DNA from: Squalus acanthias
Lineage: Eukaryota
Assembly: GCA_030390025.1 (NCBI GenBank)
Contig: CM059432.1
Span: 27,344,001 to 27,408,000 of the forward strand
Reading direction: 5' to 3'
Length of the DNA: 64,000 nt
The notes beneath the pieces were generated by a model. It did not search any database, was not told the DNA's origin, and saw only the letters and a list, made by a program, of their open reading frames with translations. A program made the position numbers and the translations under genes. Position 1 is the first letter of the stretch. Every line of letters starts with the position of its first letter. This document shows positions 9,684 to 64,000 of this stretch, in pieces.

Positions 9684-12600
9684 GGACTAGAAATTCGTGG
9701 CTGCCACAAGAGCTGCTGGAGCCTCCGCGGCCAGGGGTTAACAGCCACCGAAAATGGTGGTGCCAGCAGGACTGAGAAATTGGCACTGGAGACTAATGCT
9801 TTAGCCCAGCGCTAAACTCACCGTGTAAAAAAAATAATGTTAAAAAGAATTCCCAAATGGGAGTCTTCAGCTCTTAAAGCTGAATTGCCGTCTGCACCTC
9901 AAAAAATGGGAAAAGTGTTTCAGCACTAACACAAATGGCTCAGCAAGCCAGGGAAGGGGCTACCAGGGTCTTGCACACAGCACTCCAGCTTTGTGCAGAG
10001 GGTCAGCACTGCAAGAGAGGTCCTCCACGCACAGAGGCCAGGAGGCCGTCCAGAAAGAACAATGTGGGACCACATCACCAAGGCCAGCACTTCCAGCAGT
10101 GTCGCCCCCACCATCTGGCTCCAGTGCCCAAAGAAGCTTCATGATCTCAGACCAGTTGTCAAGGTCAGTGAATGCATCTTCAAAAGCCGTCTCCTACCAA
10201 CTGCATCACTAGCCTCACACACTTCTCAATGCACAACTCCCCCGCCCCTCCACCAATCACACACCTACCAACTGTACCAATCATGAGGCATACCTCCTAT
10301 TCCTAGCTTCACCTCACCCCCTTGGAGGAGACGGTGCTGGCCATTCTTGACAGGGGCATGGCTGAGCCCTTGGCCAGCGGCGGGGCTGAAAGGATACAAG
10401 ATGTTGGTATCCTCATACGTTATCCTCCTTTTCGCATGCTCCTCTTGCTTTCCCACCATAACTCTACTCTTGTGCCTTCCTCATTTCACACACCCAAGAA
10501 ATCCAACCTGCCCAACTAGTGGTTGATCAAGAAGAGGGAGAGGAGAGTGAAGAAAAAGAAGGAGAAGAAGAAGAAACACCATCACCCGATTTGACATGCC
10601 CAGCCACCAGCTACCAGCTCCTCAAGGTCGACCAGCAGGACCATTTGCAGTGTCCCCCACTGAAAATCAGCAGCCTTCCACCAGCCATGCTGCAGCCACT
10701 GGGGTAGCACTGTGTGACATCAGTAGGATAGGCAAAGACACACACAAGACACTCACTAAGAGAATGCATAAGGGTGATGAATTGATTTCTTCCTGTCATA
10801 TTGGATGGTTAGATGTATAATGTTGAATTGGAAAGTTTGCTTTGTGGTGGCTTTTATTTCAGCATTGTGGCCAAGAGGACTCTGTGATGGTCAGTAACAG
10901 AGGGAAGGTAAGGTGTGGGACAAATGTTTAAAGGAGAATTGGGGTTGGGGTCACTGGTAACACGGACAGATGATTTCATCTCGGATATCCTGGCCAGAAA
11001 GGGGCTGTCTGGGTTGCATCCTTCCTTCTGCTTCCTTCTTTTCTACTTCCTCCTCTTCTGCATCTTCCTCTTCTGCGTCTTCCTTTTCTGTGTCTTCCTC
11101 TTCCCTCTGCGAGTGGATGCTGTAAATCTGAAACAAAAGCATAAAATGCTGAAAATACTCAACATGTCAGGCAGCATCTCGACCTGAGACGTGAACTCTG
11201 TTTCGTTCTCCACAGATGTTGCCTGACCTGCTGAGTATTTCCAGCATTTTCTGTCTACTCAGAGGCTTTCCTTTACCATCCAAGGCCTTGCAAGCATCCA
11301 GCAGTACCCTCTGCACACATAAAAAACTTTGAACATGTATTGCACCAAGCCATTACTTCAATAAAATAAAAAAATCCAGTCCAAAAGCTTAAATGCAATC
11401 TTACCTGAAAGATGTGTGTGTCCATAGAAACATAGAAGATAGGAGCAGGAGTAGGCCATTCGGCCCCTCGAGCCTGTTCCGCCATTTAATGAGATTATGG
11501 CTGATCATCCAAATTCAGTACCCTGTCCCTGCTTTCTCCCCATATCCCTTGATCCCTTTAGCCTTAAGAAATATATCTAACTCCTTCTTGAATATATTTA
11601 ATGAATTGGCCTCAACTGCCTTGTGTGGTAGAGAATTCCACAGGTTCACAACTCTCTGGGTGAAGAAATTCCTCCTCAACTCAGTCCTAAATGGCTTACC
11701 CCTTATCCTTAGACTGTAACCCCTGGTTCTGGACTCACCCGCCATCGGGAACATCCTTCCTGCATCTAGTCTGTCTAGTCCTGTTAGAATTTTATAAGTT
11801 TCAATGAGATCCCCTCTCATTCTTCTAAACTCTAGCGAATATAAGCCTAATCGACCCAATCTCTCCTCATACGTCATTCCTGCCATCCCAGGTATCAGTC
11901 TGGTGAATCTTCGCTGCACTCTCTCCATGGCAAGAACATCCTTCCTCAAATAAGGTGACCAAAACTGCACAGAATACTCAAGGTGTGGTCTCACCAAGGC
12001 CCTGTAAAACTGCAGCAAGACATCCTTGCTCCTGTACTCGAATCCTCTCGCTATGAAGGCCAACATACCATTTGCCTTCTTAACCGCCTGCTGCACCTGC
12101 ATGCTTACCTTCAGCGACTGGTGCACAAGGACACCCAGATCTCATTGCACTTCCCCTTTTCCCAATCTATTGCCGTTCAGATAATAATCTTTCTTCCTGT
12201 TTTTGCCACCGAAGTGGATAACCTCACATTTATCCACATTATACTGCATTTGCCATGCATCTGCCCAATCATCCAACCTGTCCAAATCATACTGGAGTTT
12301 CTCTGCATCCTCCTCACAGCACACACACCCACCCAGCTTTGTGTCGTCTGCAAACTTGGAGATATTACATCTCGTTCCCTCATCTAGATCATTTATATAT
12401 ATAATGTGAATAGCTGGGGTCCTAGCACCGATCCCTGCGGTACCCCACTAGTCACTGCCTGCCACTCGGAAAAAGACCCATTTATTCCAACTCTTTGCTT
12501 CCTATCTGCCAACCAGTTCTCTATCCAAGTCAGTACCTTACCTCCAATCCCATGTGCTTTAACTTTACACGCTAATCTCTTATGCGGGAACTTATTGAAA

Positions 12601-19139: not shown

Positions 19140-22100
19140 GTCTTGAGTTTATTTCTGTTAAGTTAGTTAATAATCTGTTAAGTAGAGGCATGGCAGGGCA
19201 CCTCAGTCCCGTGGAATGCACATCTTATGCCATGTGGGAACTCCAGGATGCTTCCAGTGTCCTGGACACCCATGTGTGCAGGAAGTGTCTTCAGCTGGAG
19301 GAACTCAAGCTCCAGTTTTTGGAGCATGAGCAGCAGCTGGCGTCACTGCAGTGCATCCGTGAGGCTGAGAGCTATGTGGATAGCACGTTTTAGGAGGTGG
19401 TCACCCCGCAGCATAAGGGTGTGAAGGCAGAGAGGAAATGGGTGACCGCCAGACAGACAAGGAGGACCAGGCAGGTAGTGCAGGAGTCCCCTGAGTGCAT
19501 CTCACTCTCCAACCAGTATTTTGAATACTGGTGAGAGCGATGGCTCCTCTGGGGAGTACAGACAGAGCCAAGTTCACGGCACCATGGGTGGCTCAGCTGT
19601 ACAGGGGGGGAGGAGGAAGATCGTGAAGGCAATAGTGGTAAGGGATTCGATAGTTAGGAGAACAGACAGGTGTTTCTGTGGCCGCAAACGTGATTCCAGG
19701 ATGGTATGTAGCCTCCCTGGTGCCAGGTTCAATGATGTCACTGAGCGGCTGCAGAACATTCTGAGGGGGGAGGGTGAACAACCAGAGGTTGTGGTCCATA
19801 TTGGTATCAACGACATAGGTAGAAAGAGGGATGAGGTCCTGCAGGCAGATTTTAGGGAGCTAGGAAAGAGATTAAAAAGCAGGACCTCAAAGCTAGTAAT
19901 CTCTGGATTAGTCCCAGTGCCACGAGCTAGTGAGTATAGAAATAGAAGGATAGAGCAGATGAATGCATGGCTGGAGCGATGGTGCAGGAGGGAGGGCTTC
20001 AGATTCCTGGGACATTGGGACCGGTCTTGGGGGAGGTGGGACCTGTACAGGCCGGACGGGTTGCACCTCAACAGAGCTGGAACCTATGTCCTCACGGGGG
20101 GAGGGGGTGGCGGTTTGCTAGTGCTATTGCGGAGGGTTTAAACTAATTTGGCAGTGGGATGGGCACCAGGATGTAGCATTAGAAAGGAAAAATAAAGTGC
20201 ACAAAGGATTGTAAACCTTTCTCTTGCTACGGTTCGGACTTCGAGAATTACGAATAAGCGTAACAGTGACAGATGTGATCAATAAAATTGGTCTTTATTC
20301 ACACTATAGTTCAAAATCCAAGTGTACATAGAAGCACCTTCGGCAATGTATATGCCCGCAGTTTATTAATTCAATCGTACATAAAAGTATCCCCTTAACA
20401 ATATCTAAGCTTTATGTCCGACTTTCATACATACTCCTTTGTCTCTGGGTGATCGGTCCAGGGAGAGTCGTAAGTCGAAACATAGACTGGCCAGCTTTCT
20501 CTGTTCGTCTGTTCTTCCTTCTGTGTTTCTGAATTTCCCGCCCCTGGGTTACTTCCATTACAGGGCCTTTCTGCCGGCCTCCCTCGTATATCACTGTCCG
20601 CCTCCCTCTGATAGGTCAGTTTCTCTGATTGGAGTTTCTTACGCATGACACGTTCATGTTCCTGTGAGGTGTGTGGGGGCGGGACTTCCTTGTCAATCAT
20701 GTTCCTTCTTCCTGTCCATGTGGCCTTTCAAACAAAGGACCATGCTGACCACCAGTCAAAGGACCCCCTGCTGACTTCTGTCATTTTGTGTCTTCACAAA
20801 CAAAGAGCACATGCTGATTTCCTACATTTTGAATCTGTCTGTAACCATTTCACAATTCATTCTGAACTTCGATCTCCACACGGTAGCAATGGTTTTATTA
20901 CAATTTTCAGAATCTTACAGGATTGAGAGAGACAGACAGCACTAGAGTAAGAAATAGTATGGTATTAGGTGGGGTCAGACTAAGAGAGAATACAAGAAGG
21001 TCTAAGATAGGTTTACAGTGCATGTGTGTAAACACATGAAGCATGGTAAATAAGGTTGATGAGCTGTGGCTGCAAATAGCCACATGGGAATATGATGTCG
21101 TGGCGATAATGGAGACCTGGCTCAAAAAAGGGCAGGATTGGGTTTTAAATATTCTTGGATATAAATTGTTCAGGAAAGAGAGGGAAGGAAAGATAGGAGG
21201 TGGGGTGGCAGTATTGGTTAAGGAGAATGTTGCAGTGCTGGAGAGAGAGGATCTCCTGGAGGGGTCAAGGACAGAATCTATTTGGTTAGAATTAAGAAAT
21301 AATAGAGGTGCCATTACTCTACTGGTTAAGAAATAATAGAGGTGCCATTGCACTACTAGGTGTATTCTATAGGCCACCAACTAGAGGAGCAAATTTGCAG
21401 GGAAATTACAGAGAGGTGCAAGAACTGTAGTGAAAATGGGCGACTTCAATTATCCTAATATAGACTGGTATAGTAATAGTGTAAAGGGCAGAGAGGGGGA
21501 AGAATTTCTGAAGTATATTCAGAAGAAGTTCCTTGATCAGTACATTTCTGGCCCAGCGAGGAAGGAGGCATTGCTGAATCTGGTTCTGGGGAATGAGATG
21601 GGTCAAGTGGAGCAAGTGTCAGTAGGGGAATATTTAGGGAACAGTGATCATAGTATCATAAGGTTTAGATTAGCTATGGAAAAGGTCAGGGAGCAATCTA
21701 GAGTAAAAATACTTAATTGGAGGAAGGCAAATTTCAGTGGGTTGAGAATGGATCTGGCCTGGGTAAATTGGAATCAAAGATTGGCAGACAAAACTGTAAT
21801 GGAACAATGGGATGCCTTTAAAGAGGAGATGGTTCAGGTACAGTCGAGGTACATTCCCACAAGGGGGAAAGCCAGAGCTTCCTGGATTATGAAAGAGATA
21901 GAGAGTAAGATGAAGCAGAAAAAGTGCATGTATGACAGATGTCAGGTTGAGAATACAAGTGAGAATCAGGCTGAATATAGAAAGTTCAGAGGGGAAGTGA
22001 AAAAGAAAATAAGAGGGGCAAAGAGAGAGTATGAGAATAGATTGGCAGCTAACATAAAAAGGAATTCAAAAGTCTTCTAACGGCATATAAATAGTAAACA

Positions 22101-34556: not shown

Positions 34557-35037
34557 TTTGCGTCTGTCTTCACAAAAGAGAGGGACGATGCAGACATTGT
34601 AGTTAAGAAAGAGGTGTGTGAAATATTAGATAGGATGAACATAATGAGAGAGGCAATATTAAGGGGTTTAGCATCTTTGAAAGTAGATAAATTGCCAGGC
34701 CCGGATGAAATGTATCCCAGGCTGTTAAGAAAAGCAAAGGAGGAAATAGCGGAGGCTCTGACCATCATTTTCCAATCCTCTCTGGCTACAGGTGTGGTGC
34801 CAGAGGATTGGAGGACTGCTAACATTGTACCGTTGTTTAAAAAGGTAGAAAGGGATAGACCGAGTAATTACAGGCCAGTCAGCCTAACCTTGGTGGTGGG
34901 AAATTATTGGAAAAAATTCTGAGGGACAATACTAATCGTCATTTAGAAATGATGTGGAGATGCCGGTGTTGGACTGGGGTGGACAAATGTGAGAAGTCGC
35001 ACAACACCAGGTTATAGTCCAACAGCTTTATTTGAAA

Positions 35038-35074
35038 TCACAAGCTTTCGAAGCGCTGCTCCTTCGTCAGGTGA
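35038..35074 (-). ncRNA. Minimal type I hammerhead ribozyme motif
   Basis: Minus strand reads tcac-CTGACGA-a-ggagc-agc-gcttc-GAAA-gctt-gtga. Stem I tcac/gtga, stem II, palindromic AGCT stem III. Confidence 0.75.
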
Positions 35075-35134
35075 AGTGAAGAGATGCATATGTTCTCTGA
35101 CTATATATGCTGTGCCTATATGCATCTCTTCACT

Positions 35135-35171
35135 TCACCTGACGAAGGAGCAGCGCTCCGAAAGCTTGAGA
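35135..35171 (+). ncRNA. Minimal type I hammerhead ribozyme motif (stem I mismatch)
   Basis: tcac-CTGACGA-a-ggagc-agc-gctcc-GAAA-gctt-gaga. Confidence 0.68.
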
Positions 35172-35870
35172 TTTCAAATAAAGCTGTTGGACTATAACCT
35201 GGTGTTGTGCGACTTCTCACATTTGTCATTTAGAAAGGCACAGATTAATCAAGGACAGTCAGCATGGATTTGTTAAGGGTAGGTCGTGTCTGACTAACTT
35301 GATTGCATTTTTTGAGGAGGTAACAAAGAAGGTTGGTGAGGGTAGCACGTTTGATGTAGTCTACATAGATTTTAGCAGGGCTTTTGACAAGGACCCATAC
35401 GGCAGACTGGTCAGAAAAGTAAAAGCCCTGGGATCCAAGGGAAAGTGATAAGTTGCATCCAAAATTGGCTCAGTGGCAGGAAGCAAAGGGTCATGGTCGA
35501 CGGGTGTTTTTGTGACTGGAAGGCTGTTTCCAGTGGGGTGCCACAGGGCTCAGTACTAGTTCCTTTGCTTTTTGTGGTATATATCAATAGACTTTAATGT
35601 AGGTGGCATGATTAAATAGTTTGCAGATGATACACAAATTGACCGTGTGGTTGATAGAGAGGAAGAAAGCTGTAGACTGCAGGAAGATATCAAAGGACTG
35701 GTGATATCAAAGGACTGGTCAGGTGGGCAGAAAAGTGGCAAATGAAATTCAATCTGGAGACGTCTGATGTAATGCATTTGGAGAGGGCTAACAAGGCAAA
35801 GGAATACACAATTAATGGTAGGAGACTGAGAAATGTAGAGGAACAGCAGGACCTTGTAGTGCATTTGGCG

Positions 35871-41160: not shown

Positions 41161-42196
41161 AACTTGCCCTGTCACCTTCAAAGAATTGTTTACATAAATC
41201 CCGAGTTCTCTCTGTTCCTGCGCCACCTTTAAAATTGTACCATTTAGTTCATATTGCCTCTCTTCATCTTCCTACAAAAGTGTATCACTTCGCACTTCTC
41301 TGCTTAACTTTCATCTGCCATGTCTGCCCTTTTCACCAGTCTGTCTATGTCGTCCTGAAGTCTGTTACTATCCTCCTCATTGTTTACTACATTTCCGAGT
41401 TTCATAACATCTGCAAACTTTGAAATTATGCCCTGTATACCCAAGTCCAGGTCATTAATATATATCAAAAAGAGCAGTGGTCCTAATACCAACCCCTGGG
41501 GAACACCACTGTATACTTCCCTCCAGTCTAAAAAACAACCATTCACCACTACTCTCTTGCTTTCTGTCCCTTAGCCAATCTTGCATCCTTGGTGCCACTG
41601 TCACTTTAATGCCAGGTGCTTTAATTTTGCTAACAAGTCTATTATGTGTTACTTTGTCAAACGCCTTTTGAAAGTCCATGTACACAAGATTAACCGCACT
41701 ACCCTCATCAACCCTCTCTGTTACTTCATCAAAGAACTTAATCAAGTTAGTCAAACACAATTTGCCTTTAACATCCATGCTGACTTTCATTTATTAGCCC
41801 ATACTTTTCCAAATGACAATTAATTTTATCCTGGATTATTGTCTCTAAAAGTTCCCCACCACTGACGTTAGGCTGACTGGCCAGTAGTTGCTGGGTTTAT
41901 TCCTCTCCCCTTTTTTAAACAGGGGTGTAAGATTGTCACTCCTCCAGTCCTCTGGCACCACCCCCAAATCTAAGGAGGATTGGAAAATTGTGTAAGAGCC
42001 TCCGCAATTTCCACCCTTAGTCTCTCAGTAACCTAGGATGCACTCCATCCGGACCGGGTGACTTTTCTACCTTGAGGACTGCCAACCTTTTAAGTACCTA
42101 TTCTGTATCTGTTTTTATCCTATCCTATATTGCTACAGCCTCCTCCTTTACTGCTATATTGGCAGCATCCTCTTCTCTAGTGAAGACAGACGCAAA

Positions 42197-44142: not shown

Positions 44143-44496
44143 TAATAGCTCCTCTATTGTTCCTTAATTGTAACCAAATAGAGTCTGACCATGTTGACTC
44201 TGCCTAATCATGTTATGATTTTCTAAGTGCCCTGATACCACTACCTTAACAATGGATTCCAGCATTTTTCCGACCACTGATGTCAGGCTAACTGGCCTGT
44301 ACAGTTCCCTGTTTTTTCTCTCCCTCCTTTCTTGAATAGCGGTGTTACATTTGCGACCTTCCAATCCGCTGGAACCATTCTAAAATCTAGGGAATTTTGG
44401 AAGATCAAAACCAATGCATCCACTATCTCTTCAGCCACCTCTTTTAGAACCCTAGGATGTAGGCCGTCGGGTCCTGGGGATTTGTCGGCTTTTAGT

Positions 44497-45109
44497 CTTC
44501 CTCTGCCCTCTGTGAGCGGATGTTTTAAATCTGAAATAAAAGCATAAAATCCTGGAAATACTCAGCAGGTCAGGTAGCATCTCGACCTGAGACGTGAACT
44601 CTGTTTCTCTCTCGACGGATGTTGCCTGACCTGCTGAGTATTTGCAGCATTTTCTGGCTTCTCAGAGGCCTTCCTTTACCATCCGAGGGCTTGCAAGTGT
44701 CCAGCAGCGCTCCCTGCACACTTAAAAAACTTTTAATATCTATTGCAGCAAGCCACTACTTCAGTAAAATTTTAAAAATCCAGTCCAAAAGCTTAAATGC
44801 AAACTTACCTGAAAGATGTGTGTGTCCCTTTAAGAGGTGATAACAGCACCTCTGTGAGCCTGCTGAATGCTGGGATTTCATAGCGAGCTTAGGCCCCAGC
44901 GCTGAACTCAGCGCTGCAGTCCATTTTCGCCGAGGTGACATTAAGTCGGCGTGCACTGACTAACGTCACCCTCTCCCTAATTTAAATTTCCATGACCATC
45001 GCTTTTACCGGCAGCGCTGCCAGCCCTTGGAAAATGGTGGACGCCGCGGAACCCGCCACCAGCTGGTGAAAGAGCGGCGCCCACCGTTTCTTCACGAAAT
45101 TTTGCCTCC
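44497..45109. mobile_element. Right-end fragment of the same Harbinger family as 9684-16075, with embedded PLE fold-back
   Basis: Direct sequence similarity to 11095-11423 plus 15775-16030. Confidence 0.8.
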
Positions 45110-46862: not shown

Positions 46863-48637
46863 ATTATGTATACCAGATTTTTATTTCATGCAATTTGGAT
46901 CCCTTTAATGTTGGTATCCTCTACTTAGTTAATTTTAATTTTATCCCTCTAGATCTAATTCATTACTCTGATTATTTATATATTTACTGTTGGTTTAAAG
47001 GACTTCACCCTCTGCACTGAATTCCCACTCTCTCCAAATTCCTGTTGCCACTCTTTTAGCAGATACTCACAGCTCTGTGCACATACAGCTCTTTTACTTG
47101 TATCTATGGGCACCCATTCTAGTGGAAACAGTCTGCTTCTATCTACCCAATCCTATCCTTATATAATTTAAAACACCTTTATCATAACGTCCCGTTATCT
47201 GCAGTGTTCTAATGAAAAAAGACCCAATTTTTCTAGTCCTATTTCATATTTGTATTTCTTCATACCAGTCAGCATTCAAGTAAATCTGCGTTGTAGCCTC
47301 TCTAAGCCTCAAATTCCTTCCTATAGTGTGGAACCTATTACTGCACACAGTACTCCGACTGAGGTCTTATTAAGGATTTATATAGGCTCATCATTACCTC
47401 TTGGCTTTTATATTCTGCATCTCTTGTGATAAAACCTAGAATTCCATTTTAGCTTTTTTTTTTACAGCCTTATCAACCTTTAATGTCCTATAAACCAAAT
47501 CCCTCTGCTCTTCCATAGCAACAAGGCTTCGTCCATTCGTAGCATAATTACTGCTGGTTTTTCTTTGCCAAAATGAGATGTCACACTTTTATTGAGTACC
47601 ATCTGCAACATTTTAGACTATTCTCCCACTTATCAATATTCCTTTGCAGCGTCCTTTGGTCTTCTAAAGAATTAGCTATACCTCTTAATTTGGTATCATC
47701 TGCAAATATTGACACCACTCCCTCTAGGCCTATATCTGAAAAGGAATACTAACCCTTAATATACTTATGTTTGGTATCGCACTTGCTAAAAGTTACTTAA
47801 TTATTTTTTGCTTTAAACTTTCTATTTAATTGTAAATAAATATATTTATATATATATATAAATACATTTATTTAGTCTGTAAAAGTAATATCTGCCTATT
47901 CAAAGAGATTATGTAGTGTAGCACAAGACTATGTTTAATCTTGTAAGCAGATCATTGCAATAAGTATTATTAATCCTCAGGCAAAATATGCTGGAAATCT
48001 GAAATATAAACAGAAAATGCTGGAAATGCATGTCTGGCAGCATCTGTGGAGAGAGAAACAAGAGTTATTGGGCCGTAATTTGTGGCCCCTACGGGTGTGT
48101 ATGAGGTGTGTACACGCCTGTAAGGGTTTAGACATGTGCTGCACATGCATTAAAACCAAGAACTTGCGATCTGTCAAGTGTCAGGATTTCAGCGTACTCA
48201 GCCAATTTACCTTTCTCTCCTTGTTTTGCAATGGGCTCGGACTAGTCTTTTATTTGTCACACAGCAGAGATCAACATGACAACAGTATCTCAAGCAGTAG
48301 TTTACAGTACCAAACAGATTTATATTACTGCCCGGTCACTGGACAGCGTTAGCGTGAGTCGCCTCCCTCTCCTCTCACAGCCAGGAAGGTGTTAAACCGA
48401 AGCCAGCATGTATCCACCTTGCGCAAACTGCGGTCGATTCAGGGTGTTCTCCCCCTCTGCGTCCAACACTTTTTAAAATCCTTTTCCTTGGCCACCTGAC
48501 CTTATTTGACCACTCACTAGTTGCCCTAGGGTCTCCATTTCACCTATTCTTCTTTGCACGTATACCCCCTTATCTTATCTCGATGTCTCTTTCTGTTCTT
48601 TCTCGACCTGTGAATGACATAGACTTCGCAAGACATA

Positions 48638-51365: not shown

Positions 51366-52946
51366 CCAGAAAAAAAAATGTTATCAATAATTTATACATT
51401 TAAACACCTGTGAAATAAGGTAAGTTTATTTTTCGCCCCTTTAAAACATGTACATTTATTTTTCAAAAAATTAAATTTTTGTTTTAAATATTTAATTAAA
51501 TGCCATTTTAATTAATTTTAATTATATGATTTTTTTCTTCATTTCTTTGAAGTGTAGATGTATTTTTGGGGGTATTCCCATTCATGCTTATGGGGTTTCC
51601 GTACATACGGAATCCCCATAAGTATGAATGGGGATTCCCTTCTTTAAATCGTTGGGCCGGCCCACGTGATCCCAGCAGCACTTGCGAACCACCTGCGCCC
51701 CGGAGATACGTGGGCCTCTACCCGCGGGTGCCCGGAGAGGCCCAGGACCACGAATCTCCGTACCTCTCGGACCATCAGGTACGCGGGCATTTTATTTGTG
51801 GATCGGAGGCGTTTCCCCACGGGAAGCCTCCGACTACAAATTCAGGGCCAATGTTTCAGGCCAGTGACCTTTCGTCAGAACTGGAAAATGTTACAGATGT
51901 AACAGGTTTTAAGCAATTACAGAGGCAGGGAAAGGCAGGGTGGAGAGGAGGAAAGAACAAAAGAGCAGGTCTGTGAGAGGGTGGAAGGCAGGAGTGATTA
52001 AATGAACAGCAAAATCATTACTGGCACCCACTGTCCAAAAAAATGGGAGCAGTGGTTATGACCTGAAATTGTTGAACTTGATGTTGAGTCCGGAAGATTG
52101 TAAAGTGCCTCATCGAAAGATGAGGTGCTGTTCCTCGAGCTTCTGTTGAGCTTCATTGGAATAGTATAGGAGGCCGAGGACAGAGAGGTCAGAGTGGGAG
52201 TGGGTCAGAGAAATAAAATGGCAAGCGACCGGAAGCTCAGGGTCACACTTGCGGACTGAACGGAGGTGTTCAGCAAAGCGATCTGCTTTTGGTCTCCCAA
52301 ATGTAGAGGAGACTGCATCGTGAGCAGCGAATACAGTATATTAAATTGAAAGCACAAGTAAATCGCTGTTTCGCCTGGAAGGAGTGTTTGGGGCCCTGGA
52401 CGGTGGGAAGGGAGGAGGTGAAAGGGCAGATGTTGCATCTCCTGTGCTTACATGGGATGGTGCCGTAGGAAGAGGAGCTGGTGTTGGGGGTAATGGAAGA
52501 CTGGACTAGGGTGTTGGGGAGGGAACGGTCCCTTCGGAATACTGATAGAAGAGGAAAGGGGAAGATGTGTTTGGTGGTGGCATTGCGCTGGAAAGGGCGG
52601 AGGATGGTTCGTAGAATGTGGAGGCTGGTGGGGTGGAAGGTGAAAACAAGGGAAACCCTATCGTGGTTCTGGGAGGGAGGAGAAGGGGTGAGGGCTGAGC
52701 GTGGGAAATGGGATGGACACGGTCGAGGTCCATGTCAACCACAGGGGAGGGGAATCCTTGGTTGAGGATAAAGTCCCTCCGCACCTCCATCCTCCACCAG
52801 GATGGCCTGCGGGCCCTCCGCTTCTTCCTTGAACGGAGGACCAACCAGTCCCCATCGACCATCACCCTCCTCCGCCTGTCTGAACTTCTTCTTACATTCC
52901 CTGCCTCTGTACTTGCTTAAAACCTGTTACATCTGTAACATTTTCC

Positions 52947-52983
52947 AGTTCTGACGAAAGGTCACCAGCCTGAAACGTTAACT
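52947..52983 (+). ncRNA. Minimal hammerhead motif in PLE pLTR (family 2), weakened stem II
   Basis: agtt-CTGACGA-a-aggtcaccagcct-GAAAC-gtt-aact. Stem I agtt/aact, palindromic ACGT stem III. Confidence 0.6.
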
Positions 52984-54187
52984 CTGTTTCTCTCTCCCGA
53001 AATGCTTCCTGACCCGCTGAGTATTTCCAGCATTTTCTGTTTATATTTATCGTTAATCCTCAGACCACAGAACTCTGCGCAGGACGGATTATTGAGAGAA
53101 AGCATTTACAGTGTATAAAATAATATCTAAAATCAAAAATATCTACAAAAAACTGACAATACAATAGTAAAGTTACCCAATGTACAAATGGAGTTGACTA
53201 TTTAAAAAAGACAATGGGGATGATTTTGACTTTTGAGCAACAGACTGGCCTCATTTAAATTTGTCAGGCAATCTGCGAGGTGCCAAACAGGTAACCCGAT
53301 GCAGCTGTTCAGATTGAGGCCTTACGATCGGTCCAGGACATCTGCCTGCAAGGTAAGTTGCGGGGAGGGGGTGGGGGCGGTCGTGATCACGGAAGTGACC
53401 CCTGGGGCGGCAACAGCCCAGATTATTTTTGTGAGCCCCAGTGGGTCACTCCTGCTCCTCTGGGTCCCACAAAAATAATTTGACACTTATCTTTGGCGGG
53501 CCTCTTCAGTACCATTGCCTGTGGAACTGGTCAGAGCCTGCACTGCTCAGCGTCAGACCACTTCTGACCAAAATAGCAATCGGGCTCCTATGTACTTCAT
53601 AGGACCCCGATTTCCTGTTTTAAAAGAGACCTGTTGCCTGAAACAGGCAGGCGATTTGAACAGCAGGCAGTAGGGCTCTTTCAAGATGGAGCAGACTGCA
53701 TCAACGGGCAGAAGTACCACCTTGTCGAAACTCCGCGTGGTAGAGAAGAATTCCCACCCCTACCCATGGATTGATCTAAGCTGATAATTCTTTTGCAGTA
53801 CTGAGGGAGCACTACATTGTTGGAGGTGCCACCTTTCAGTTGAGATATTAAATCAAGGCCTGCCTGTTCAGATGAATGTAAAAGATCTAATCACACAATT
53901 TGAAAAAGAACAGGATATCCTGGCCAACATTTATACCTTAACCAACACCATCAAAAACAGATTGACTGTCTCTGATGCTGTTTAAAGCACTTTTCTGTGT
54001 GCAGTTTTTTGTTCCTATTTTTGTCTATATAACAACAGTGGCTGCACTTCAAAAGTAATTTGTTGGCTATGAAGCACTTTGCGCGGTCCTTGGGAAGTGA
54101 ACGGAAGTTTTGCTTTCTATTTGCTTCATGAAGAAATGGCAGATAGAGTACCTCATGTCAGCCTTAACTCAGTGGTGGCAGTCTCTC

Positions 54188-54597: not shown

Positions 54598-54730
54598 ATA
54601 CAAAAGCAAAGTACAGTGGATGCTGGACATCTGAAATGAAAACAGAAAATGCTGGAAATACTCAGCAGGTCAGGCAGAATCTGTGGAGAGAGAAACAGAG
54701 TTAACGTTTCAGGTCGATGGCCTTTCGTCA
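54598..54730 (-). mobile_element. PLE pLTR fragment (family 2) truncated at the hammerhead core
   Basis: Exact 14-bp TSD gagttcttccattg (54584-54597, 54731-54744) inside a SINE. Minus strand reads CTGACGA-aaggccatcgacct-GAAAC-gttaact. Confidence 0.82.
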
Positions 54731-54929
54731 GAGTTCTTCCATTGTCCTGGCCAACATTTATTTCTCAAGCAACATCACTAAAACAGATTATCTGGTCATT
54801 TAACTCATTGATAAGCATAAATTGGCAGCTGCGTTTCACTACATTACAACAGTGACTACACTTCAAAAGAACTTTATTGGCTGTGAAGCACTTTGGAATG
54901 TCCAGGGGTCATGAAAGATGCAACTCAAT

Positions 54930-56517: not shown

Positions 56518-57328
56518 ATAGAGTCATTACGGCACAGAAGGAGGCCATTCGGCCCATTGAGTCTGTGCCAGCTCTCTGTAGAGCAATCCAGTCAGTCCCA
56601 TTCCCCTGCTCTATCCCCGTAGCCCTGCAAGTTTCTTTTCCTCAAGTGCCTATCCAATTTCCTTTTGAAATCATTGAACGTCTCCGCTTCACCACCCTTG
56701 TCGGCAGCGAGTTCCAGGTCATTACCACTCGCTGCGTAAAAAAGTTCTTCCTCACATCCCCCCCTGTATCTCTTGCCCAAACCCTTAAAATCTGTGTCCC
56801 CTAGTCCTTGTACCATCAGCTAATGGGAACAGTCTTTCTCTGTCTACCTTATCCAAACCCGTCATAATCTTGTACACCTCCATCAAATCTCCCCTCAACC
56901 TCATTTGCTCCAAGGAGAACAACCCCAGCTTCTCCAACCTAACCTTGTAGCTAAAATCCCTCATCCCTGGAACCATTCTGGTAAATCTCCTCTGCAACCG
57001 CTCAAGGACCTTCACATCCTTCCTAAAGTGTGGTGACCAGAACTGGACGCAATACTTTAGTTGTGGCCTAACCAGAGCTTTATAAAGGTTCAGCATATCT
57101 TCCCTGCTTTTGTACTCAATACCTCTATTTATGAAGCCCAAGATCCTATATGCTTTGCTAATTAATCTCTCAATATGTCCTGCCACCTTCAAAGATCTAT
57201 GCACATGAACGCCCAGGTTCCTCTGTCCCTGCACACTCTTTAGAACTGTGCCATTAAGTCTATATTGCCTCTCCCCATCCCTTCTGCCAAAATGCATCAC
57301 CTCACACTTCTTTGTATTAAATTCCATA
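56518..57328 (-). mobile_element. CR1 3' fragment
   Basis: KCEVMHFG...RPQLKYCVQFWSP...RLRGDL. Confidence 0.9.
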
Positions 57329-57893: not shown

Positions 57894-59221
57894 GTGTGGT
57901 TCTCTGATGTTTGTTCACCTACCTAGATTGAGCTTGTCAACCTCTAGTGATCTGAATCTGAGACAAACTTGGCTTAGTTGGCACTCTTGCCTCTGGGCCT
58001 GAACATTGTGGGGTTGAGCCACATTCCAGAATATCGAGCCCAACATTGTAAGATGACACTCCAGTGCACCACTGAGAAAGTGCTGCATTAGCAGAGGCCC
58101 TGTCCTTCTGATGAAACTTTAAATAGGGATCTTTAATACCCACCTAACACAGACGTCTGGTTCGGGAAGACCTTAAAGATCCCATGGCACTATTTGTAGA
58201 AGAGCAAGGAGTTCTCCCAGTGACCTGGCCAACAATCCTTTCTCAACCAAAACAATCAAAAGCAGATTAACTGGTCATTCATCCCATTGTTGCTTGTGGG
58301 ATCTTGTTCTGTACAAAATGGATCCTGTGTTCCCCCTACATAACTGCCACTGCAGTTCAAAGTCATTCTTTGTATGGGAAGTGCTTTGAGACAGCCCCAA
58401 CTTTTGCACCAGCTAAGATTAGGTCAAACAACAGGCTATGTAATGGCTCATTAGATAACATTGGAAGCTCTAAATGAAGAAGGTCCCAGGTTTCATTCCC
58501 AGCATTAAGAGAGTTTATTTCATCCACCCGTAGAATATGGATTCAATTGTAAATTTGTGTGTCATGCTTGCACGGGGGTGATGCCAATTTTCTCTGTAAC
58601 CTTCCCATTTTAGCGCAGATCAGGAATCGAACCTTGGACCTTCCTAATCTGCAAGGTTTAGCACCTCAACCAAGTGGCCATTTTTTATCTATAAGCCTCG
58701 GCAGTGAATGTCAGCAGGCTAATCCACTGCCGGAGATATAAAACCCCAAAATTGCTGCCCCAGCTAAGATTAACTAACTGAGCATAGCTCAGAGATAGAA
58801 GCTCGGAGCTTCCTGAGCAGTATGGCTGTAGTCACTGAATGCTAGGAACACTGAGACCAATTGTAAAAAGAAAGAAAGGCTATCACAACCTCAGGATGTT
58901 CCAAAGTGCTTTACAGCCAATAAAGTACATTTGAAGTGTAGTCACTGTTGTAATGTAGGAAATGTGGCAGCCAATTTGCAAGTTCCCACAAAGATCAATA
59001 TGATAATGGCTAGATAATCTGTTTTAGTGATGTTGGTTGAGTGATAAATATTGGCCAGGACACTGAAGAGAACTCCCCTGCTCATCTTTGAAATTGTAGT
59101 GTCCCAACCACCACCCTATGAGCTATCTCAACATAGAGCAGGAATTATTTTAACACTTGCTTAATGTCCTTCTGTTTTACAACGTACTCATTTTTCCTTT
59201 TTTTGTCTCCTGTCTACATAG

Positions 59222-60468: not shown

Positions 60469-62716
60469 GTGAGTTGGAATTTTGTTTTCTGTATTTAGTT
60501 GGAAAGGGTCAATGTTGAGGTACAGGTGGAAGATCTTTGGTGGCTGTTTGAGGCGGTATTTATATTACAGTTGTAACATTTCCACGAACACTGAAGTTGT
60601 AGTGCCCGACCGGACTCCAGAGCAATGCTAAATGAGACATCTTGAAATAAGTCAGATCAAGGCCTGATTTTGAATGTATTATTGGTCCAAAAATCAAAAT
60701 GCTTTTTACTGACACTACAGTTAAAGCTAGCCTGAGAGTGTATCATGAGTGGGGACTGGTTGAGAATATGTGGTTGTGGGGTCGGGGGGGAATGAATATT
60801 CTATAAGAAGGAAAAGATCATTGAACACCTATTGTATGGGTCAGTCGTGAGACTTGTTGTGGAGTGGATGACTGAGCATTTCTGATGATCTATAGATGTG
60901 GTGTTGAGTGTGTGTGGGAAGGGCTGAGTATCTGTGACATGACGATTGGTGGGTGGTTAAAGGTCTATATTGATATTGAAAAATTTGAGAGTCTTTGGAT
61001 GATAAAAGAAGACTCGTGTGGAGCATAAACACAGGCACAGACCAGTTGGGCTGAATGGCCTGTTTCTGTGCTGTAAATTCTATGTAATTCTATTCTAAAG
61101 AATGTTAAGCGTCTGTAGTGGTTGCATGGTGTTTAGTTGAGAATCGGTGGGGAAAGGTGAATGGTTTGTGATCTCTGTGGAGCGTGCAGAATAGATGACC
61201 TGTAGTTGAATTGGTTTAGGCTCTGTGGTGAGAGTTGGGTAGTACAGGGTTCACGATAAAGGCTTGCTTGGTATTTGGCTGGGATCTTTTCATTTCCGTG
61301 GGATATACTGACCCATTTCCCACATGGAGGCATCCGTAGTTTTTTTTATTCATTCACGGGATGTGGCTGTCGCTGGCAAGGCCAGCATTTATTGCCCATC
61401 CTTAATAAAGTGCCTTTAATATCCATGTAGATATAGCTGTTTTCCCATGTGAGATTCCCATGCCTGGTCAAAGCAGAGATGAGAGCATAGCCTAATATTG
61501 ATGTTAGATGACACACCGGTGCTGTTCACGGGTTAGAGAGCAGTAATAGTGAGATTGCAGTCTGCTGGGCAGGTTCCAATTAGATTTTGCACAATGCCAA
61601 ATTATTGTTCTCAGGAAATGGCTTCTTGGTGCCACAGAAATGAAAATATGCTTTAAACTTGTTGAAGTCACTATTGCCAACATAACATATGACTAGTTCA
61701 ACAGCACAACATATCCCGTGGTTCTCAATCTACAATGTGTGGTGCATTGCTAAACCTTATTCAAACAAAAAAAGCATTGTTGCAGCGGCTGTGTCTAGGT
61801 TCCGAATAGAACTGCTGCATAGTTGATTACAAAGCTAGAAAGCTATTTATTTCTAAAATAAGTACTGGATTCAGTGATCCCCAGCACTGCAAGCGGACTA
61901 GCAAGAGCAAGAAGAAGCTGCTGTCAGGTCAGGTACTTTGCAAGGCTTACCAGCCGGTCCTAGCAGTATACGACACATTGCGGGTAGTTTTGACTTGGGG
62001 TGATAGTGTAATAGAAGATATCTGATCAGACGCCTGTTATACATTGAGTCATAGAGTCATAACGGCTCAGAAAGAGGCCATTCGGCCCATCGAGTCCGTG
62101 CCGGCTCTCTGTAGAGCAATCCAGTCAGTCCCATTCCCCCGCTCTATCCCCGTAGCCCTGCAAGTTTATTTCCCTCAAGTACCTATCCAGTCTCCCCTTG
62201 AAAACATTGAGTATCTCCGCTTCCACCACTTCCGTTGGCAGCGAATTCCAGGTCATCACCACTTGCTGCGTAAAAAAGTTTTTCCTCACGTCCCCCCTGT
62301 ATCTCTTGCCCAAAACCTTAAATCTGTGTCCCCTAGTCCTTGTACCATCAACTACTGGGAACAGCCTTTCCCCGTCTCGCCTATCCAAACCCGTCATAAT
62401 CTTGTACACCTCTATCAAGTCGCCCCTCAACCTCCTTTGCTCTAATGAAAATAAATCCAGCTTCTCCAACCTGTCCTTGTAGCTAAGATCCCCCATCCCC
62501 GGAACCATTCAGGTAAATCTCCTCTGCACCCTCTCAAGGGCCTTCACATCCTTCTTAAAGTGTGGTGACCAGAACTGGATGCAATACTCCAGTTGTGGCC
62601 TAACCAGCGCTTTATAAAGGTTCAGCATAACTTCTCTACTTTTGTACTCAATACCTCTATTTATGAATGAGAAGTCACACAACACCAGGTTATAGTCCAA
62701 CAGATTTATTTAAAAT

Positions 62717-62752
62717 TACAAGCTTTCGGAGCTGTCGCTCCTTCTTCAGGTA
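62717..62752 (-). ncRNA. Minimal type I hammerhead ribozyme motif (mirror copy)
   Basis: Exact reverse complement of 62787-62822. Confidence 0.75.
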
Positions 62753-62786
62753 GGGTAGCTGTGAGAGAATTCTCTCACAGCTACCC

Positions 62787-62822
62787 TACCTGAAGAAGGA
62801 GCGACAGCTCCGAAAGCTTGTA
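62787..62822 (+). ncRNA. Minimal type I hammerhead ribozyme motif
   Basis: tac-CTGAAGA-a-ggagc-gaca-gctcc-GAAA-gctt-gta. Confidence 0.75.
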
Positions 62823-64000
62823 ATTTTAAATAAATCTGTTGGACTATAACCTGGTGTTGTGCGACTTCTCATTTTTGTCCACCCCAGTCCAACGCCGGCA
62901 TCTCCACATCATGACCTCTATTTATGAAGCCTAAGATCCCATATGCTTTGTTAACCACTCTTTCAATATGTCCTGCCACCTTCAGGGACCTATGCACAAT
63001 AACTCCCAGGTCCCTCTGTCCCTGCACACTCTTTAAAACTGTGCCATTAAGTGTATATTGCCTCTCCCTGTTCCTTCTGCCAAAATGCATCACCTCACAC
63101 TTCTCTGTATTAAATTCCATCTGCCACTTGTCTGCCCATTTTACTAGTCTTTCTATGTCCTGTTGCAGTCGATTGGTATCATCATCACTGTTTGCCACAC
63201 CCCCAAGTTTGGTGTCATCGACAAATTTAGAAATTCTACTCTGCATTCCAATATCCAGGTCATTTATATATATCAAAAAAAGCAGTGGCCCCAGCACTGA
63301 CCCTTGGGGAACACCACTGACTACCATCCTCCAGTCTGAAAAACAGCCATTTACCACAACTCACTGTTTTCTGTCCTTAAGCCAATTCCATATCCAATCT
63401 GCCACTGACCCACCTATTCCGTGAGCCTCAATTTTGTTAACCAGCCTTCTATGTTGTACTTTGTCAAACGCCTTCTGAAAATCCATGTAGACAACATCCA
63501 TTGCATTCCCTTCATCAATCCTCTCTGTTACTTCATCAAAAAATTCAATTAGATTAGTCAAACACGATCTGCCTTTTACAAATCCGTGTTGGCGCTCCTT
63601 AATTAGCTTAAACCTCTCCAAGTGCCCGTTAATTTTTTCCTTGATTATAGTTTCTAAAACTTTACCCACCACTGATGTTAAACTGACCGGCCTGTAGTTA
63701 CTAGGATTGTCCTTACACCCTATTTTGAACAATGGTGTCACATTTGCCACTTTCCAATCCATAGGCACCTCCCCCGCATCTAGGGAAGTTTAGAAAATTA
63801 TGGCAAGCCCTTTCGCTATCTCCTCCCCCAGTTCCCTTAGCAACCTGGGATGCAAGCCACCTGGACCAGGCGACTTGTCCACTCTAAGCATAGCCAGCCT
63901 TTCTAGTACATCCTGTCTATCAATTTTCACCCCTTCCATTGCTTCTAGCTTTTCCACTTCTACCGATATTTTGTCAGCATCCACCTCCTTAGTAAACACC

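Follow-up and report, generated by a model that had tools for sequence, protein, structure and literature searches.

An inverted, 5'-truncated copy together with a 30-40-bp tail is the insertion pattern described for Penelope-like retroelements (PLEs; PMC8557442; PMC3846280). According to the text of these two papers the tail can lie at either end, and that text does not state which of the two arms is the longer one. For the minimal hammerheads of metazoan PLEs, the text of Cervera and De la Pena (2014; PMC4209133) lists four traits, reports motif pairs on opposite strands 100-700 bp apart and calls the families 'full of covariations'. A lizard PLE protein, as described in the text of PMC11167929, cuts and extends both DNA strands, with two start sites that bound the tail, and this reaction does not need ribozyme cleavage in vitro. 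The later steps are unvalidated in that text.

The insertion described here lies at 34938-35236 of the window, by which we mean the whole stretch of 64,000 nt of Squalus acanthias DNA that was analysed. This insertion (35-kb copy) is very likely a PLE stump. In our reading, to which we assign a probability of about 0.6, it consists of head-to-head, unequally truncated PLE ends that likely arose by two primings at a staggered cut. The features are collected in Table 1.

Table 1. Features of the 35-kb copy, its sister insertion and family B, in positions of the window
Feature	Position	Strand	Remarks
Left target-site duplication	34938..34949	+	12 bp, 9/12 A/T; identical copy at 35225-35236
One-sided tail, distal 3' end of the element	34950..34981	-	contig loose ends with mixed flanks at 34949
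Left arm, tailed copy	34982..35091	-	5'-truncated 21 nt upstream of hammerhead C3
Left minimal hammerhead motif	35039..35073	-	stem I cac/gtg intact; predicted scissile bond 35042/35041
'Spacer', parent sequence upstream of right arm	35092..35117	+	26 nt; TATATA at 35102
Right arm, tail-less copy	35118..35227	+	with spacer reaches 47 nt upstream of C3
Motifs of the right arm	35118..35227	+	initiator-like TCACTTC, A at 35132; AATAAA at 35177
Right minimal hammerhead motif	35136..35170	+	middle stem I pair broken (cac/gag)
Right target-site duplication	35225..35236	+	first 3 nt overlap the end of the right arm
Decayed host LINE copy, AP-endonuclease type	34800..35400	+	limits are those of the stretch tested; 74% identity across empty site
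Sister insertion (62.7-kb copy)	62653..62928	+	tail on right; stem I tac/gta
62.7-kb copy, duplication	62653-62667 / 62914-62928		15 bp, 11 A/T
62.7-kb copy, tail-less arm	62666-62769		
62.7-kb copy, tailed arm	62770-62873		
62.7-kb copy, tail	62874-62913		40 nt
Family B copies	243-421, 11112-11254, 44515-44656, 47988-48067, 51850-51932, 52860-53048, 54598-54731		

The arms of the 35-kb copy are 110 bp long and pair at 108 of 110 positions (2 mismatches), with 26 unpaired nt between them. The 12-bp duplication GTCATTTAGAAA is found on both sides and the 32-nt tail on the left side only, so that the arms, spacer, one-sided tail and duplication given in the preliminary description were all confirmed by coordinates. 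The longest exact inverted arm of the window measures 92 nt, whereas 10 dinucleotide-shuffled sequences reach 9-12 nt, and the exact motif CTGANGAAGGAGC occurs four times in the window, always inside the 35-kb copy or the sister insertion at 62.7 kb. When the insert and one duplication are removed, the empty site of the 35-kb copy shows 74% identity to the LINE at 41654-41955; we take the host LINE to be CR1/L2-like. The empty site of the 62.7-kb copy is 90% identical to the LINE at 56969-57287, and other LINE copies of the window are uninterrupted across the target sites of both insertions. Because the flanks match LINE copies straight through both empty sites, both copies are true insertions. 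Their identical duplications and the few differences between the arms (2/110 and 1/104) suggest that they are young.

The 62.7-kb copy has 104-bp arms with 1 mismatch and no spacer. It is symmetric, each arm ending 20 nt upstream of C3 with GAATTC at the centre. Downstream of the ribozyme the two copies differ at only 6 of 92 nt, whereas upstream of it their alignment score is at shuffle level (p=0.83). It had been claimed that the sequence inside the ribozyme differs completely between the two elements; this is true for the upstream DNA and wrong for the ribozyme and the 92 nt downstream of it. A PLE parent, the hammerhead motif and the division into two subfamilies, which had been proposed at the same time, are supported. 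The tail of the 62.7-kb copy is closed by an ATG (62911-62913) in the context CACATCATG, a likely ORF start, and an ATG early in the tail is also present in a metagenome PLE family of 48 copies. A 68-nt intron from the 3' strand of stem I to CCCCAG before the tail-end ATG was considered and rejected, as no such joint was found among the matches listed.

Outward from the centre, each arm carries stem I, CUGANGA, an extra A, stem II, GAAA, AAGCUU and the second strand of stem I. The core (CUGANGA and GAAA) is present in all four arms of the two copies, and so are the extra A between positions 9 and 10.1, the G10.1-C11.1 pair and the AAGCTT palindrome (15.2-16.2). Stem II has 5 bp and is G-C closed in both copies. 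Helix I is short, with 3-4 bp in three of the four arms and the middle pair broken in the arm at 35136-35170. The stem II loops are agc (35-kb copy) and gaca (62.7-kb copy), as had been reported. That core and stem II ggagc/gctcc are kept was also correctly noted, except that a G-U pair in stem II of the left arm (35051) had been omitted; it is private to the 35-kb copy, since about 99.8% of the contig depth differs from it. At 35042 (position 17) the contigs vary between U17 and C17. Four public runs were aligned to the left arm at 80% likeness (10,836, 6,519, 2,411 and 11 records). They gave 16 variant rows at >=3%, none of them at the 14 core positions, in stem I or in the tail, although contigs drop rare variants and the lack of listed variants is therefore weak evidence. 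An Rfam search of the window returned no hammerhead family at E<=1, and over the palindrome only sub-threshold microRNA hairpin matches.

Monomer folds of the four motifs were uninformative (z of 0.38, 0.38, -1.36 and -0.63). All four read-through RNAs are predicted to form one hairpin of -197 to -215 kcal/mol, in which the pair probability of stems I and II is 0. In the energy model a double hammerhead can be drawn for two same-sense RNAs, yet with -13.3, -8.7 and -18.9 it lies 6-13 kcal/mol above the best dimers (-23.1, -21.7 and -25.1), which is in line with the reported low or protein-assisted activity. Since the hairpin removes stems I and II and the two motifs lie on opposite strands, a read-through transcript of the 35-kb insertion is predicted to lack catalytic activity.

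The third stem-I pair is C-G in the 35-kb copy and U-A in the 62.7-kb copy, which is a single change between two subfamilies. As this change adjoins unrelated upstream DNA, the chance of a matching 5' base given the 3' change is about 0.25-0.3 (T frequency of 0.29 in the upstream flank). The contrast of cac/gtg versus tac/gta that had been put forward is correct for the left (minus-strand) arm, and the right arm reads cac/gAg (35169). The stem-I letters of the 62.7-kb copy were not among the variants at >=3% in the four runs aligned to the left arm.

Metagenome contigs were then scanned with a generic hammerhead motif that leaves stem I and most of stem II free. The scan gave at least 121 loci (about 410 estimated), which were grouped into 51 families. 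The family of the 35-kb copy is not among the matches listed, except for a 39-nt motif match (L070:395-433), near-identical to it with stem I ttcac/gtgaa and stem II ggagc/gctcc in unrelated flanks. Among the matches listed, 12 of the 19 families with >=4 stem-II pairs have a full 3-bp Watson-Crick stem I, compared to 2 of the remaining 32 (Fisher p=2e-5); two of the 19 seem to have been split off from larger families. This level was reached by 0 of 20,000 partner shuffles, and three or four pair types are found per stem-I position across these families. An alignment of 6 rows is 87.5% paired (0/500 shuffles) and carries little weight, as it holds three lineages from which the structure was drawn. 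The covariation is convincing only across families, and at the level of the whole class the structure is real, as has been published. The earlier conclusion of a conserved structure therefore stands on other families and on the text of PMC4209133, and not on the single compensatory pair from which it had been drawn. Two loci of the scan (L060 and L061), 2.4 kb apart on one contig, carry the same hammerhead motif in direct orientation, each with a stem I of 6 bp. On an unrelated contig (L115:240-440) a head-to-head double-hammerhead palindrome, its centre about 12 nt upstream of C3, sits in an apparently coding AT-rich region.

The family of the 35-kb copy is abundant, with 10,836 and 6,519 matching contigs in two DNA runs. 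Among the matches listed, contigs diverge from the element into varied flanking DNA at 34949 (121, 71 and 24 contigs in three runs), and further discrete 3' exits lie at 34980 (21 contigs) and 34990 (38 contigs). These discrete 3' ends fit the two RNA start sites that bound the tail in the lizard PLE. The four target junctions of the 35-kb and 62.7-kb copies share 1, 3, 2 and 2 nt with the element, for which the rough joint chance is 2e-5. No GIY-YIG match was obtained in a domain scan of 45 of the 122 stop-to-stop frames of the window, and a 24-nt family pattern was absent from the viral, genome and metagenome collections searched. Since no parent ORF was found in the frames scanned, the PLE identity rests on the motif, the architecture and another family. 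This is the largest metagenome family (48 copies among the matches listed), in which GIY-YIG is found upstream of the motif (PF01541, E=1.4e-5). As the domain lies upstream of the same motif class, the 48-copy family is a PLE.

At the centre of the 35-kb copy, contig loose ends behind 35090-35092 (7, 21 and 5 contigs in three runs) match the 26-nt centre in reverse complement, and those before 35091-35093 run on into further shared sequence. Because the loose ends match the centre, the spacer is the stretch of the parent that precedes the right, tail-less arm, and the copies in the arms thus stop 21 nt (tailed) and 47 nt (tail-less) upstream of C3. With fold-back of a tail-primed cDNA the loop would belong to the tailed arm, therefore this route is excluded for the 35-kb copy. 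For the 35-kb copy, the earlier view of a fold-back within about 20-30 nt of the ribozyme, on its upstream side, in both elements fails on the same two points, the unequal arm ends and the side of the spacer. The 62.7-kb copy, being symmetric at 20 nt, does not discriminate between the routes. Among the matches listed, opposite-strand joints in the family of the 35-kb copy lie at 34986/35077 and 35044/35081, both unequal. Depth decreases across the 30 nt that precede 35091 in the same way as it increases at the tail end; this decrease is inseparable from an edge effect and was not used.

The window also contains a second PLE-like family (family B), whose separate minimal hammerhead has gtt/aac in stem I and the palindrome AACGTT. 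Its copy at 243-421 is a symmetric inverted pair centred on this stem-III palindrome and is flanked by 15-mer duplications (234-248 and 422-436) with 2 mismatches. One family B copy begins at C3 and has a 14-bp duplication. The pieces at 47988-48067 and 51850-51932 are apparently one copy interrupted at its cleavage triplet; the intervening DNA measures about 3.8 kb and has GGGCC-like ends. An inverted family B insertion is found twice with its flanks (11092-11374 and 44495-44777, 87% identical), and because the flanks are the same it was copied within a host repeat. Outside these families, the window holds a decayed U6 snRNA copy (58531-58639, minus strand; 52.2 bits, above the Rfam gathering score), a 34-bp tandem repeat that is G-rich on the plus strand (2007-2816) and a frame at 19479-20138 (plus strand) with a GDSL-like lipase/esterase match (PF13472, E=6.5e-14), presumably a LINE ORF1.

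The 48-copy family supports a pile-up of 5' ends near the ribozyme. Among the matches listed, the 5' end lies <=26 nt upstream of C3 in 31/48 copies, with 23/48 ending 1-15 nt upstream versus 7/48 at 20-30 nt; 12 copies stop further upstream, and 5 run past the end of the DNA retrieved. Ends number 3.6, 0.8 and 0.39 per 100 nt of exposure in the bins 4-35, 35-100 and 100-300 nt upstream; a constant rate is a weak null here, and the copies are old and were chosen for an intact motif. Copies stopping downstream of the ribozyme were excluded by the motif search.

A second, opposite-strand piece was found at 20/48 loci among the matches listed. Left out were 2 pairs with the piece downstream, 3 about 100 nt or more apart, 3 uninformative ones (one symmetric) and, as a detection bias, 2 tail-only partners. 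The tailed arm is shorter in 9/10 informative inverted pairs of the matches listed (one-sided p=0.011) and in 8/9 (p=0.02) without the ambiguous L082, the pairs having been sorted by eye, after the fact, from copies with an intact ribozyme. L112 has the opposite polarity, and two of the nine are shaky (overlap in L082, broken 3' end in L099). The 35-kb copy shows the polarity of the nine. The unequal event of family B at 11112-11254 (repeat at 44515-44656) has this polarity as well, the tailed arm starting from ruler position 50 and the tail-less arm from 15. Elsewhere, the arms at inverted junctions stop from within or downstream of the ribozyme to about 180 nt upstream. The shorter tailed arm of PLE inverted pairs, the only point here that is possibly new, fits two primings on one RNA. 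A literature search, which covered main texts and mostly papers outside subscription journals, listed no paper with a statement of polarity or twin priming for PLEs, and published figures may already show which of the two arms bears the tail.

One lead for the position of the 5' ends comes from the TATA and initiator consensus motifs. In the 35-kb copy TATATA (35102) is followed by TCACTTC, whose A stands 30 nt later (35132) and 7 nt before C3, and family B has TTAAAA and CCAGTTC at like spacing (52917-52951) just upstream of its hammerhead. TATA-initiator pairs of such spacing number 6 over the two strands (128 kb). In run X3, two joints have an end at 35077, which mirrors 35132. The text of PMC3846280 describes a TATA with TCACT about 20 bp behind it in a rotifer element, and that of PMC2377424 a TATA-less promoter in a fly element. 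As a general cause of the 5' pile-up the TATA/initiator was rejected and remains a lead only: a TATA is present in 1/12 aligned copies of the 48-copy family, and the 62.7-kb copy is without an initiator in its 20 nt.

The two-priming route itself has, in our view, a slightly better than even chance of being correct. A GIY-YIG endonuclease would nick both strands 12 bp apart. One 3'-OH would prime at the inner start site and give a tail-less cDNA that extends further, and the other would prime at the outer start site, copy the tail, trail and stop earlier. The two cDNA ends would be joined by short homology or, if both stop together, at a short palindrome, for which GAATTC in the 62.7-kb copy and AACGTT in family B (314-319) are candidates. 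Owing to its position about 90-120 nt from the 3' end, the ribozyme motif would be carried along passively, and it is likely selected in the parent element. What we observe are the products; from them we infer every enzymatic step of this route. The argument from junction microhomology is weakened, as the start sites of the lizard enzyme are not homologous to the cut DNA, and the polarity of the arms is equally predicted by self-priming of an antisense RNA.

The latter reading also yields a PLE stump: the antisense RNA would fold back at its 3' end, the tail would stay on the sense cDNA, and the arm derived from the RNA, which includes the loop, would be the longer, tail-less one. It was proposed from palindromes at inverted junctions in the text of PMC3846280, can give the observed polarity and fits the perfect centre at 62769/62770 as well as the AACGTT centre of family B. 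However, it requires antisense transcription and removal of the tail from one arm, neither of which is seen; junction e1 and the upstream parent sequence have only about 1 nt in common; and the in vitro reaction in the text of PMC11167929 used sense RNA and extended both DNA strands. We consider this reading unlikely. Less probable still is a tail-primed cDNA that folds back 20-30 nt upstream with a 26-nt loop, at a point set by the ribozyme. The symmetry of the 62.7-kb copy at 20 nt and the 31/48 listed copies of another PLE family ending <=26 nt upstream agree with it, but the loop should continue the tailed arm and continues the tail-less arm instead, which refutes it for the 35-kb copy. 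In addition, the stops at inverted junctions range widely on both sides of the ribozyme, and a truncation rate that falls with length is expected without any effect of the ribozyme.

It is very improbable that the insertion is a MITE-like or retrozyme-like hairpin element that is non-autonomous and transposes as an entire palindrome. Such an element would be short, non-coding, of high copy number and flanked by duplications, as is the case here. However, the 35-kb and 62.7-kb copies have different centres, arms of different length and duplications of 12 versus 15 bp, and a tail at one end makes their ends unequal. The centres, the duplications and the tail set them apart from MITEs; the opposite-strand joints given above end at different points, and the motif has no tandem direct repeats in the window. 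An assembly artefact (fold-back chimera) can be regarded as highly improbable: no contig among the matches listed from the public runs spans the whole 35-kb copy, and palindromes collapse in such contigs, but the clean 12-bp duplication, the restored host LINE, the one-sided tail and two arm differences speak against a chimera, and the layout recurs in four other insertions of the window and in contigs of other genomes. A working double ribozyme kept by selection has next to no probability, because intact cores, as seen in all four arms, are expected from youth, dimer pairing of the opposite-strand motifs within one RNA is impossible, both stems are lost in the hairpin and one arm has a broken stem I.

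For the two-priming reading we formulate a tentative and rather doubtful rule: at its 5' end the tailed arm would almost never be longer than the tail-less one, as both cut strands would be primed on one RNA, the inner site first and the outer one after it by strand displacement, and short copies would pile up at a transcription start a few nt upstream of the hammerhead, predicted at 35132. If this rule is true, one reaction would account for the tail, inversion, duplication and short length. If the polarity holds genome-wide, fold-back of a tail-primed cDNA would be ruled out and a direct prediction for the in vitro system obtained. The 35-kb locus itself has little weight alone; the repeat is abundant and has left a great many such stumps.

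L1 twin priming uses two target primers and leaves an inverted junction with short homology, the inverted piece coming from further upstream. The two primers and the short homology are alike here, whereas both arms of the 35-kb copy cover the same stretch. Like the animal non-LTR retrozymes in the text of bioRxiv 10.64898/2026.07.22.740005, the 35-kb copy is non-coding, hammerhead-bearing and PLE-derived; unlike their tandem direct repeats, it is a single inverted pair, and so is the other of the two insertions. All four traits of minimal hammerheads given in the text of PMC4209133, which names no cartilaginous fish, are present in the 35-kb copy, although stem II has 5 bp instead of 7-8 and stem I 3-4 bp. 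Compared to the EN+ PLE insertions in the texts of PMC3846280 and PMC8557442, the two head-to-head copies of the insertion are reduced to <150 nt each and have no ORF, but the 35-kb and 62.7-kb insertions share the head-to-head copy, the tail at one end, a duplication in the range of about 8-15 bp, the AT-rich target and an inverted junction with palindromes or microhomology. Poseidon PAc of Anolis carolinensis, according to the text of PMC11167929, has its start codon at stem II, whereas the only likely one here ends the tail (62911-62913). In both systems discrete 3' ends bound the tail, the targets are AT-rich and the ribozyme lies about 90-120 nt from the 3' end.
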